Positions 7,701 through 10,700 of a DNA stretch of 18,168 nt are shown one piece after another. The position numbers were made by a program. Each line of letters opens with the position of its first letter. Position 1 is the stretch's first letter. Origin of the DNA: a virus (lineage: Duplodnaviria > Heunggongvirae > Uroviricota > Caudoviricetes); the IMG/VR virus record IMGVR_UViG_2740892218_000008, one strand, 5' to 3'.

Positions 7701-10700
7701 ACGTCCTGCAATAACGCCCACATAAGGCGGTTTTGAGGATTACTCCGCCTGGGTTCTTTAACGTGGACTTCGTGAGGTGACTTGTCGTCGATGGGAAGTG
7801 AGAGTATTGCGTCTATGGCGTTATTTCTGATTGCTTCGTTGCGAAGCATGTATATTTGCTTCATCGAAATTCTTCTCTTTAATTCCAGCGGCTCTGATAG
7901 CTTTCATTACTGCAATTACCGTTTTGTCTCTCCCATCCTCATAACCCATCGCATAAGCACCTTCTTCACCATCTTTCCAAAAGTCGTCATTCGATTCGGG
8001 CCAGTCGATATCCAGTTCAATAGCTGCTCGCGATGCCTGCCACGTTTGCCAGTGGCCTTGAACATCGTCCATCACGTATTGACCACCAATATTACCGCTG
8101 CCAATTTCATGGTGATTTTCAGGGTAACGGATAAGGTCTGAAGATTCGCCCCCACGTCGCAACCAACTTTCTTCAAACTGCTTTCTTGATTCGTCCATCG
8201 GTACTTACCATCAGTTCAACTCACAAAACGCCACGCCATTTTTGCTACAGCGACAGGCGCAACACCGATAATCACCCACAGGAGAATGCTACCGAAAAGC
8301 ACACCCACCAGGTCTTTACCTTCGCCTACCAACCGGACAAAACAGCCAGCAACCACAATGAACGTCGCCACCATCCACATAGCACCGAGAAGCCTCAATG
8401 CAGAGAAAATCAACTCAGCCACGATTTACTCTCCCCCAAATAAAAAGGCCTGCGATTACCAGCAGGCCTGCTATCAGCTCAGTGATGTAGATGGTCATCT
8501 TTTAACTCCATATACCGCCAATACCCGTTTCATCGCGGCACTCTGGCGACACTCCTTAAAAATCAGGTTCGTGCTCACCTTTCCTTCCCGTTCTTCTCTG
8601 GTAGCGAACCGGTAATACACCGTTCGCCAGACCTTACCTTCGATAACCAGAAGACCTGCCCGTGCCATTTTAGCCGCGGCCTGATTTATGCTGGTTACTG
8701 TTGCGCCTGTTAGCGCGGAAACGTCCTGTGCACAGAAGCTCTTATGCGTTCCGAGGTAATGAATAATTGCCTCTTTGCCCGTCATACACTTGCTCCTTTC
8801 AGTCCGAACTTAGCTTTAATTTCTGCGATCTTCGCCAGAGCCTGTGCTCGATTTAGAGGTCTGCCGCCCATGACAGGAAGTTGTTTTACTGGTTCAGGTA
8901 TAGTCTCACCACGGTTAATTCGTGCTGTCATACAGGTCAGTTCATCGGCAGCCTTGCGCCGTAATTCCGCGTCAGTCAGCGCATTGGCCCGCATGTTCTG
9001 GTACAGGTTGGTAACCAGCCAGTAGTGCGCGTTTGATTTCCACGGATAAGACTCTGCATCCGGATACAGGCCACGCTTCCGGCAATACTCGTAAACCATA
9101 TCAACCAGCTCGCTGACGTTTGGCAGTCCGGCGATAACGGATGCTTCTTCCCGGCACCATGCAACAAACTGCCCGGGTGATGGCAGAAATGGTCGATTCT
9201 GCCGACGGGCTACGCGCATTCCTGCGTTAACCTGTTCCATTGTGGTGATCCCGTTTTCCCGGAAAGCCAGAACCCACTGGCGACGGATTTCGTTCACCTC
9301 GTTCTGGTCACGGTTAGCCAGGCTCGCCGGGAAAGTTGCCAGTAACTGGCTGAACACACCATTGATGATCTGCGCTACCTGCTGTACCTGCGGCTTTTCG
9401 TCGTACTGTTCCGGCATGTTGTTGGCGATTCGACGCATCTGCTCACGGTCAAAGTTAACCATCTGTGCGGCGATGTTTTTCATAAATCCACCCCGTAAAT
9501 CCAGTCAGTGTTTGTCAGGTCGAGTTTTGGTTTACTGGCTGTCACGCCTGCCTGTTGCTTGTTACGGTTGATTTCGAGCTGGGTCCACTTGTCGCGGAGT
9601 TTGGCCGGGCTCAGCACGTTACCGGACCAGAAGTTGTCCTGGCATGCCCAGCGGAACAGTACGCACATGTCGCGATGGTTACGTCCGTCACGTTCACGCA
9701 TCAGGCGGATATCGTTAGCCCACCCTGCAAAATTCGGTTTTCTGGCTGATGGCGCGATGGTCTTCACCATGTCAAACATCCACTCTGCGGCGGTCAGGTC
9801 TTCTGCTGTTCCCCACTTGCTGCCGCTCTGAATCGCAGCATCCGGTTTAACCACAGAAAGATCGTTTTCTGGCTGGTCGGAGGATTCGCCAGAATTCTCT
9901 GACGAATAATCTTTTCTTTTTTCTTTTGTAATAGTGTCTTTTGTGTCCCCCTGTTTTGAGGGATAGCAATCCCCCAATTTGAGGGATGTTTTATCCCTCG
10001 TTTTAGGGGATTTTCCCTCGTTTTGAGGGATACACCATTCTGAGATGTTTTTATTTGGTCCAAACATGCCGCCTTGCTGCTTGATAATATTCATTCTGAC
10101 GAGTTCTAACTTGGCTTCATTGCACCGTTTGACAGGTAACTTTGTAATCTCGCTAAGTTGAGAATCGGTGATTCTGTCCATTGGTTTATTCCACCCATAG
10201 GTTTTACGCAGAATGGCAAGCAGCACTTTAAACTGTCGCTTGGTCAGATCTGCGCCTGAATAAGCCTCAAGCAGCATATTTGATAGTCTGGCGTAACCAT
10301 CATCGAGATCTGCCACATTACGCTCCTGTTCGGCAAAGTTACCTCTGCCGAAGTTGAGTATTTTTGCTGTATTTGTCATAATGACCCCTGTGGATTGATC
10401 CAGTAATCCCCTCAGAATTGCATATCAATTTGCTTAGAGTCCCCGGCGGCCACCGGGGATTTTTTCTTTGTGATTCCATCAAGCACATACTTAAAAGCCC
10501 TACTAATCGGACTGATGTCTGATGCCATTCCGAAAGCACACAAGACCGAAGCAATAAACCGCCAGTCCGTTCTGCTTATCTTCGATTCATGACAGCCAAT
10601 CATCTTTGCCAGACCTCGCTGTGTAAGCGTTGACAGGTTGATGAGTAAATCTGTTTCTGCGCGATCAATTTCTCGCTGTGTTGGCTTGCTGTAACTTGCT

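Follow-up and report, generated by a model that had tools for sequence, protein, structure and literature searches.

What is encoded in the ∼300 bp that follow ren in the viral record IMGVR_UViG_2740892218_000008 (Caudoviricetes), an 18,168-nt stretch of DNA that was analysed at its full length and is called the window here? The original prediction for this locus described two overlapping, tightly coupled hydrophobic open reading frames (ORFs), of 27 and 68 codons, and pointed out that such small membrane proteins in phage early operons are frequently toxins, lysis or division modulators, or exclusion factors. Our analysis leads to a more familiar answer. The window is a lambdoid prophage and the ∼300 bp are the start of its nin region; the first frame is that of NinA, with the terminator tR2 inside it, and the second is a known gene, the two standing in a delayed-early nin architecture. 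We give this reading as a whole a probability of roughly 0.8. As tR2 and NinA are known from databases and the literature, and the 68-codon gene from databases, this is ordinary lambdoid-prophage architecture and not a new system. The result chiefly corrects annotation: what had been taken for a hydrophobic peptide is tR2 inside the NinA frame, and the 68-codon gene is an orphan, widespread and with an annotation already in place.

A terminator within the NinA frame

All genes after ren are read from the minus strand. The layout was taken from the ORF list and from a reading of that strand, and the features on which the argument depends are the following, in window coordinates.

8785..8495, minus strand: ren (96 codons; ORF list; PHROG 142, Ren-like, E 1.4e-41; gene order as in lambda)
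8506..8509, minus strand: GGAG, Shine-Dalgarno (SD) motif for NinA, inside the 3' end of ren and 7 nt before the ATG
8498..8415, minus strand: NinA ORF, 27 codons, MTIYITELIAGLLVIAGLFIWGRVNRG (PHROG 5907, E 1.9e-17, residues 1-26 of 27)
8469..8446, minus strand: tR2 hairpin, stem AGGCCTGC/GCAGGCCT, loop TGGTAATC (terminator scan)
8445..8438, minus strand: tR2 U-tract TTTTATTT (terminator scan and sequence read)
8437..8429, minus strand: GGGGGAGAG, SD motif for the gene after tR2, 6 nt before the GTG at 8422
8422..8216, minus strand: 68-codon gene, GTG start at 8422..8420 (PHROG 1165, E 1.7e-35, residues 1-68 of 68)

The 27-codon frame encloses, on its own strand, an intrinsic terminator that the original prediction had left out. 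The hairpin and its U-tract fall in NinA codons 10–20; the stem has 8 pairs, 6 of them G-C, the loop has 8 nt and the U-tract follows directly. The local 41-nt fold of the hairpin has a free energy of −16.2 kcal/mol (z −3.0), whereas folding the entire 96-nt stretch gives a z of 0.04, so that only the local hairpin stands out. Hairpin and U-tract are base for base those found 3' of ren in lambda. Three differences from lambda lie in the 29-nt segment between the ATG and the stem, including two A-to-G changes just 5' of the stem, and the rest of the shared 70-nt core is identical. The hairpin is also identical to the lambda tR2 oligonucleotide 'aacaggcctgctggtaatcgcaggcctttttatt' (TR2-cut) in the supplement of Li et al. 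(2015; PMC4824070), who used it as 'the well-studied lambda terminator tR2' and one of whose primers 'mutates start codon of NinA'. In lambda, the NinA AUG is 30 bp upstream of tR2 and the NinA stop 16 bp downstream of it; the maximal efficiency of the terminator in vivo is ∼0.9, and a transcript that ends there is a NinA message without a stop codon (PMC4824070).

Other records agree with this identification: in that of mEp235 the site is labelled a rho-independent terminator, and in that of HK75 simply a terminator. Stem variants in homologues keep their pairing through G-U pairs, with one exception at a single locus, and the U-tract shows no substitution in 197 copies, in a scan that was itself anchored on TTTTTATTT. 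The prophage further shares with lambda the GGGGGAGAG that follows the U-tract, the position right after ren in the pR operon, and the presence of an N-like antiterminator gene and of an upstream nutR-like site. In lambda GGGGGAGAG serves as the SD motif of ninB; the conserved tR2/NinA module closes with it, and homology to other phages typically stops exactly there. The gene that comes next differs, being ninB in lambda, whereas in the prophage the 68-codon gene and a 125-codon gene are inserted before ninB. On the strength of this sequence identity, the main role of the 27-codon stretch is that of the lambda terminator tR2, experimentally established for the identical lambda sequence; termination and antitermination at the prophage site would carry over from lambda by analogy.

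The 27-codon frame is likewise, by its sequence, the NinA ORF of lambda and P22. As the original prediction had seen, its ATG (8498..8496) and the TGA that ends ren (8497..8495) overlap in an ATGA (8498..8495). At its other end, the first 8 nt of the 68-codon ORF overlap the 3' end of NinA (GTGGCTGA at 8422..8415), and the NinA stop (8417..8415) lies 5 nt inside that ORF. The overlapping ATGA start, the embedded terminator and a stop that overlaps the next start are shared with NinA of P22, lambda, HK620 and HK630 (PHROG 5907). The lambda ORF has 26 codons, with a TGA that overlaps the ninB ATG. The prophage peptide matches 22 of its first 23 residues and then ends in VNRG where lambda has GKS, a tail set by the downstream junction. 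The preceding gene also differs, being ren in the prophage and a gene for a DnaB-type helicase in P22, HK620 and HK97. The core GLLVIAGLFIW is encoded by the stem, loop and U-tract, and most of the hydrophobicity of the peptide is thus due to tR2 lying in the coding frame. NinA or a NinA-like product is annotated in P22, HK630 and UAB_Phi20, and the ES18 record likens gp63 to P22 NinA, but the ORF is absent from the lambda RefSeq record and from PGAP output. Of 5426 complete E. coli genomes, 1957 (∼36%) carry the NinA/tR2 core.

Variants of the module are found in other phages. HK97 (L098 1201-1299, Gp56) has the same first 11 NinA codons and then another 10-bp hairpin (GGGGCTATTT/AGTAGCCCTT, −12.6 kcal/mol) at the corresponding position of the same frame. 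In HK022 (L003 807-1500) and Stx2a_F349 (L099 589-1241), an endonuclease gene with HNH_3 and AP2 domains (HK022_57) is inserted in the NinA ORF after about codon 11. This insertion displaces the tR2 hairpin ∼660 nt downstream, to a position directly before the 68-codon gene; the interrupted NinA continues as a 34-residue hydrophobic peptide ending in KK, with no hairpin in that position.

Identity and conservation of the 68-codon gene

Judged by its homologues, the 68-codon frame is a real gene of the family phrog_1165. The members HK022_58, mEp235_046 (in its record similar to Stx2-86 gp69) and RefSeq WP_000818842.1, a 68-residue 'hypothetical protein', match the prophage product over its full length from the same place right after tR2, with no substantive difference. 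Identity to RefSeq proteins is 96%, and the gene is present in 528 of the 5426 complete E. coli genomes (∼10%). Its relatives number 199 to 227, nearly all of those among the matches listed having 68 residues, and the family forms 12 clusters at 50% identity, mostly of truncated copies. A profile search with both allele types and a distant homologue, P0130, had only hypothetical proteins of Escherichia and Salmonella among its best 120 matches, and no more distant family among them. On these best 120 matches, the family is a narrow one, confined to Escherichia and Salmonella prophages. A literature search on the accession and locus names of the gene gave no match. The view that such genes are routinely missed by annotation is accordingly right for NinA in some records, and does not hold for the 68-codon gene, which has both a RefSeq entry and a PHROG family.

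Two allele types, A and B, share ∼54% of their residues, and both have exactly 68 codons, without insertions or deletions. Between them, over codons 2–45, the proportion of synonymous sites that differ (pS) is ∼0.7 and that of non-synonymous sites (pN) ∼0.41, corresponding to a ratio of non-synonymous to synonymous substitution rates (dN/dS) of 0.2–0.3. The distant homologue P0130 (66 residues, 34% identity) keeps the motif FGxxFxWVIIGxxPVAVAKxAW of the second transmembrane segment (TM2). A further candidate of 34% identity, P0131, was rejected as an artefact: its contig (L101, Logan SRR13893411) is nearly free of C on one strand, as in a bisulfite-like C-to-T converted assembly.

The GTG and the SD motif GGGGGAG(A/G)G are invariant across the alleles, apart from one (L177) with ATG at the position of the GTG. 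Internal ATGs are replaced by CTG or TCG, or are absent, in other alleles. Some phage records annotate a 52-residue version from an internal ATG; the alignment of alleles indicates that the GTG is the true start. The other sense frames across the ORF always hold stops, and the antisense frames are open in just 34 and 42 of 53 alleles. Two plus-strand ORFs (8186..8443 and 8286..8615) were considered and rejected: in homologues they do not stay open, their composition is odd, and neither has a PHROG match. Three sites coincide exactly with breakpoints of homology, namely the NinA ATG, the hairpin and the stop of the 68-codon ORF, and with breakpoints at the ORF ends the gene behaves as a unit of mosaic exchange.

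AlphaFold2 models the product as a helical hairpin, with helices at residues 2–33 and 38–67 and a joint at EGKD (mean predicted local distance difference test score 87.7). Hydropathy likewise gives a two-helix hydrophobic protein, in keeping with the two membrane segments predicted earlier. The product is very probably a small membrane protein, with the inner membrane as its predicted location, and TM2 is far more conserved than the first segment (TM1).

Broken copies are also found. In H-19B (L004, AF034975) codon 15 is TGA where intact type-B alleles have GGA, and the L102 copy is frameshifted. From the alleles compared, the gene decays readily, and the broken copies imply that it is dispensable.

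Possible roles of the 68-residue protein

Because TM2 is more conserved than TM1, and pore-like or holin-like features are lacking, we favour a partner-binding mode of action. The protein may insert in the inner membrane and act through its conserved second helix by binding a host or phage membrane protein, and not as a pore or toxin. This is put forward tentatively, at about one chance in three.

It appears unlikely that the protein is an effector of the kind first envisaged, damaging the membrane as a holin- or pinholin-like pore or a depolarising toxin, inhibiting division or excluding superinfecting phages. The protein does resemble small phage holins and exclusion proteins in its size and its two hydrophobic helices, and in other phages a different membrane protein (phrog_5903, 108 residues) occupies the same slot. 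However, the gene lies in the early nin region, between ren and NinB and ∼4.5 kb upstream of Q along the direction of transcription, outside the lysis cassette and with no adjoining endolysin gene. Its tail, KMAWRFVS, contributes just two basic residues, K61 and R65, in place of the charged tail of a holin, and the single conserved GTG provides no dual start.

The pinholin of phage 21 is a small two-helix phage membrane protein. The 68-residue protein would be like it in its similar length and two hydrophobic helices, and unlike it in its early operon, its lack of a charged C-terminal domain and the absence of any sequence or fold match in Pfam, PDB and BFVD searches. NCBIfam and PADLOC searches gave no usable match either, and PADLOC, which covers defence and exclusion systems, had none for the 27-, 68- or 125-residue proteins. 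The traits of type I toxins of the Hok or TisB kind were also missing: a consensus scan found no promoter-like site on either strand within 7300..9600, Rfam found no small RNA, and the antisense ORFs are not conserved. With no promoter of its own found, the gene should be silent in the lysogen, which argues against exclusion of the prophage type, and the commonness of truncated alleles also speaks against an effector. The toxin, lysis, division and exclusion roles thus gain no support from the searches, and the setting is that of an N-dependent delayed-early nin region and not of a lysis cassette or a self-promoted moron.

Probable translation of NinA

Whether the NinA frame is used as such was judged by comparing ∼200 copies from phage and prophage loci. 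NinA was found behind the ends of seven unrelated genes, among them ren and three types of helicase gene, and every one of these ends gives ATGA or TAAATGA together with an SD-like motif 5–9 nt before the NinA ATG; with a background rate of 4.2% for the motif, seven out of seven has a probability of ∼2e-10. Downstream, nine different genes, among them ninB, the 68-codon gene, 933W L0091 and the phrog_5903 and DUF4752 genes, start between −11 and +3 nt from the NinA stop (background for one frame, 0.29), through junctions of the forms ATGA, GTGA, GTGGCTGA, ATGGTTAA and TAAATG. Distinct substitutions in the shared 70-nt core number 34; 18 of them are synonymous when read in the NinA frame, where 10.2 would be expected (P 0.005), and neither of the other two frames has a synonymous excess. 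The 5' segment outside the terminator gives 8 of 13 against 3.7 expected (P 0.012), and in HK97 the frame is preserved across the different hairpin.

Experiments on lambda point the same way. On plasmids the NinA start site of lambda works and is 'not weak', while NinA translation from the native site cuts tR2 termination by only ∼10% (Li et al. 2015, PMC4824070). A chain of nin genes linked by ATGA has been described (PMC8022706, citing Kroger and Hobom 1982). NinA is probably translated, to judge by these conserved signals. It probably acts mainly as a translated linker in this chain, by way of translational coupling, and a function at the level of the peptide is possible. It would then offer a natural case of one sequence serving as terminator RNA, as translated ORF and as recombination junction between phage modules.

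The arrangement that first drew attention to the locus goes beyond chance, as hundreds of records of phages and prophages carry both ORFs, with frames, starts and SD motifs kept. Given that translation signals stand before both starts and that codon-level constraint across homologous prophages was found for both frames, the original prediction escapes the refutation that it had set for itself.

An account in which the 27-codon ORF is a by-product of the terminator, its GC-rich stem and T-run merely being read as hydrophobic codons and its translation irrelevant, seems improbable. It would fit with the origin of GLLVIAGLFIW wholly in hairpin and U-tract, with a C-terminal tail that differs with each downstream gene, with the HK97 and HK022 variants that alter most of the peptide, with the existence of frameshifted and nonsense copies, and with the missing PGAP and lambda RefSeq annotation. 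It would not explain why the SD motif and start overlap are retained behind seven unrelated genes, why the stop lies at the start of nine different ones, or why the synonymous excess is specific to the NinA frame and reaches outside the terminator, and the start site that is active on plasmids (PMC4824070) also counts against it.

We consider it about equally doubtful that NinA is a functional single-pass membrane micro-protein, a toxin or modulator, whose coding sequence doubles as a terminator. Hydropathy does give a 19-residue hydrophobic stretch followed by R/K residues, substitutions are biased towards synonymous or conservative ones, and the HK022-type peptide is hydrophobic and ends in KK even though the hairpin is gone from that position. 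Set against this, NinA had no usable match in Pfam, NCBIfam or PADLOC, nor does any family of known function match it; peptides of the HK97 and HK022 types have another sequence beyond codon 11, and the NinA tail is variable. As transcripts terminated at tR2 lack the NinA stop, full-length peptide could come only from read-through mRNA, and the plasmid study that expressed NinA makes no mention of toxicity (PMC4824070).

A translation-controlled attenuator of the pyrBI kind, in which a ribosome in the hairpin decides on termination, is very unlikely. As in pyrBI-type leaders, a short ORF runs through an intrinsic terminator and a close ribosome can block the hairpin; ribosomes near tR2 are indeed able to repress termination there (Li et al. 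2015, PMC4824070), and the end of ren with NinA/tR2 (8440-8529, minus strand) bears a weak resemblance to the Rfam family Trp_leader. That match, however, reaches only 19.9 bits, below the gathering score of 41 (E 0.16). Unlike pyrBI-type leaders, NinA/tR2 has no metabolite-sensing pause or regulatory codons, the fold contains no alternative hairpin, the effect of translation from the native start is small (PMC4824070), and read-through in lambdoid phages is supplied by N.

The idea that the 68-codon ORF is an open spacer frame and no gene, which might draw on weak constraint among close alleles (pN/pS 0.55) and the lack of a Pfam or NCBIfam family, is close to refuted by the two equally long and constrained allele types, the distant homologue P0130, the conserved SD motif and start, and the mosaic junctions at the ORF ends.

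Predicted delayed-early expression

The prophage carries the elements that a delayed-early nin region would call for, at the following positions.

12025..12360, plus strand: N-like antiterminator gene (PHROG 271, anti-termination protein N-like, E 4.6e-31)
10817..10806, minus strand: boxA-like TGCTCTTTAACA, after cro
10794..10777, minus strand: boxB-like hairpin TCACC...GGTGA, after cro

Together the last two (10777..10817, minus strand) form a putative nutR-like site, judged by likeness to the nut sites of lambdoid phages. RNA polymerase left unmodified by N at nutR would mostly halt at tR2, while N-modified polymerase would pass it, and everything downstream would be delayed-early. By analogy, the N-like protein of the prophage may let polymerase through in this way. 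Since the two ORFs lie at and beyond tR2 with no promoter-like site, expression of both should need N antitermination. On the read-through mRNA, ribosomes leaving ren may restart at the overlapping AUG, or bind at the GGAG, cross the hairpin sequence and end at the UGA 5 nt inside the next gene. NinA would in this manner hand ribosomes over the terminator to the 68-codon cistron, whose product would be made only in lytic development, as a non-essential membrane protein.

Several points weigh against this reading as a whole. Termination, antitermination and coupling are all transferred from lambda by analogy, and the partner-binding mode of the 68-residue protein is purely inferential. The bias of K/R residues is weak as a topology cue (3 versus 2). 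Close alleles of the 68-codon gene have a pN/pS of 0.55 in frame against 0.33 off frame and are uninformative, so the case for constraint is carried by the comparison of types A and B and by one distant homologue, and truncated or frameshifted copies exist (P0121-P0129). For NinA, ∼2% of copies are frameshifted or truncated, and the HK97 and HK022 types retain less than half of the peptide, which tells against a strict peptide function. In addition, the stem positions that tolerate G-U pairs are third codon positions, so part of the synonymous excess could reflect constraint on RNA structure.

Neighbouring genes and other features

The full gene order is cI, cro, cII, O, P, ren, NinA/tR2, the 68-codon gene, the 125-codon gene, NinB, Dam, NinE, NinF, NinG and a phosphatase gene, with Q further on. 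The two genes that follow the 68-codon gene are placed as follows.

8198..7821, minus strand: 125-codon gene, phrog_343 / Phage_phiTE_015-like (PHROG 343, E 6.9e-34)
7864..7418, minus strand: NinB, after the 125-codon gene

A spacer of 17 nt separates the 68-codon ORF from the 125-codon ORF, the product of which had no usable match in Pfam, NCBIfam or PADLOC. A phrog_343-like gene is the commonest successor of the 68-codon gene, following it in 68 of 104 loci. The two families go together far more often than expected: among NinA-bearing segments, phrog_343 was found next to it in 17 of 21, versus 18 of 67 (Fisher P 2e-5, with kinship ignored), and a distant phrog_343 member shares an operon with the 66-residue homologue P0130 (L100 1600-1890). 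Shared descent of adjacent genes could explain the association. A bolder proposal would have the tR2 coding sequence also encode a selected membrane micro-protein, with full-length NinA arising only from N-antiterminated transcripts, and the 68-codon and phrog_343 genes form a delayed-early module directed at a host inner-membrane target; we hold the odds of this combination to be poor.

In other phages (Oslo, L096 677-1003; L132, L166 and others) the slot after tR2 holds the phrog_5903 gene, whose 108-residue product has a hydrophobic N-terminus, with the same GTGGCTGA junction. In L146 and L166 the phrog_5903 gene comes after the 68-codon gene. The 125-codon ORF and NinB have 44 nt in common, at the 3' end of the former and the 5' end of the latter (7821-7864, minus strand), and comparable 20-nt overlaps are present in HK97 and HK022.

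Elsewhere in the window, a gene for an LpxR-family outer-membrane protein (4111-5070, plus strand; Pfam E 8e-40) is flanked by the phosphatase gene of the nin region and by Q, on the strand opposite to them, and looks like a moron insertion. Downstream of Q there is a cluster of four tRNA genes (Gly-tcc, Thr-tgt, Arg-tct and Met-cat; 1575-1884, minus strand), and the Rfam element Lambda_thermo, the cIII thermoregulator, was found at 13909-13967 (plus strand) with 88.5 bits.

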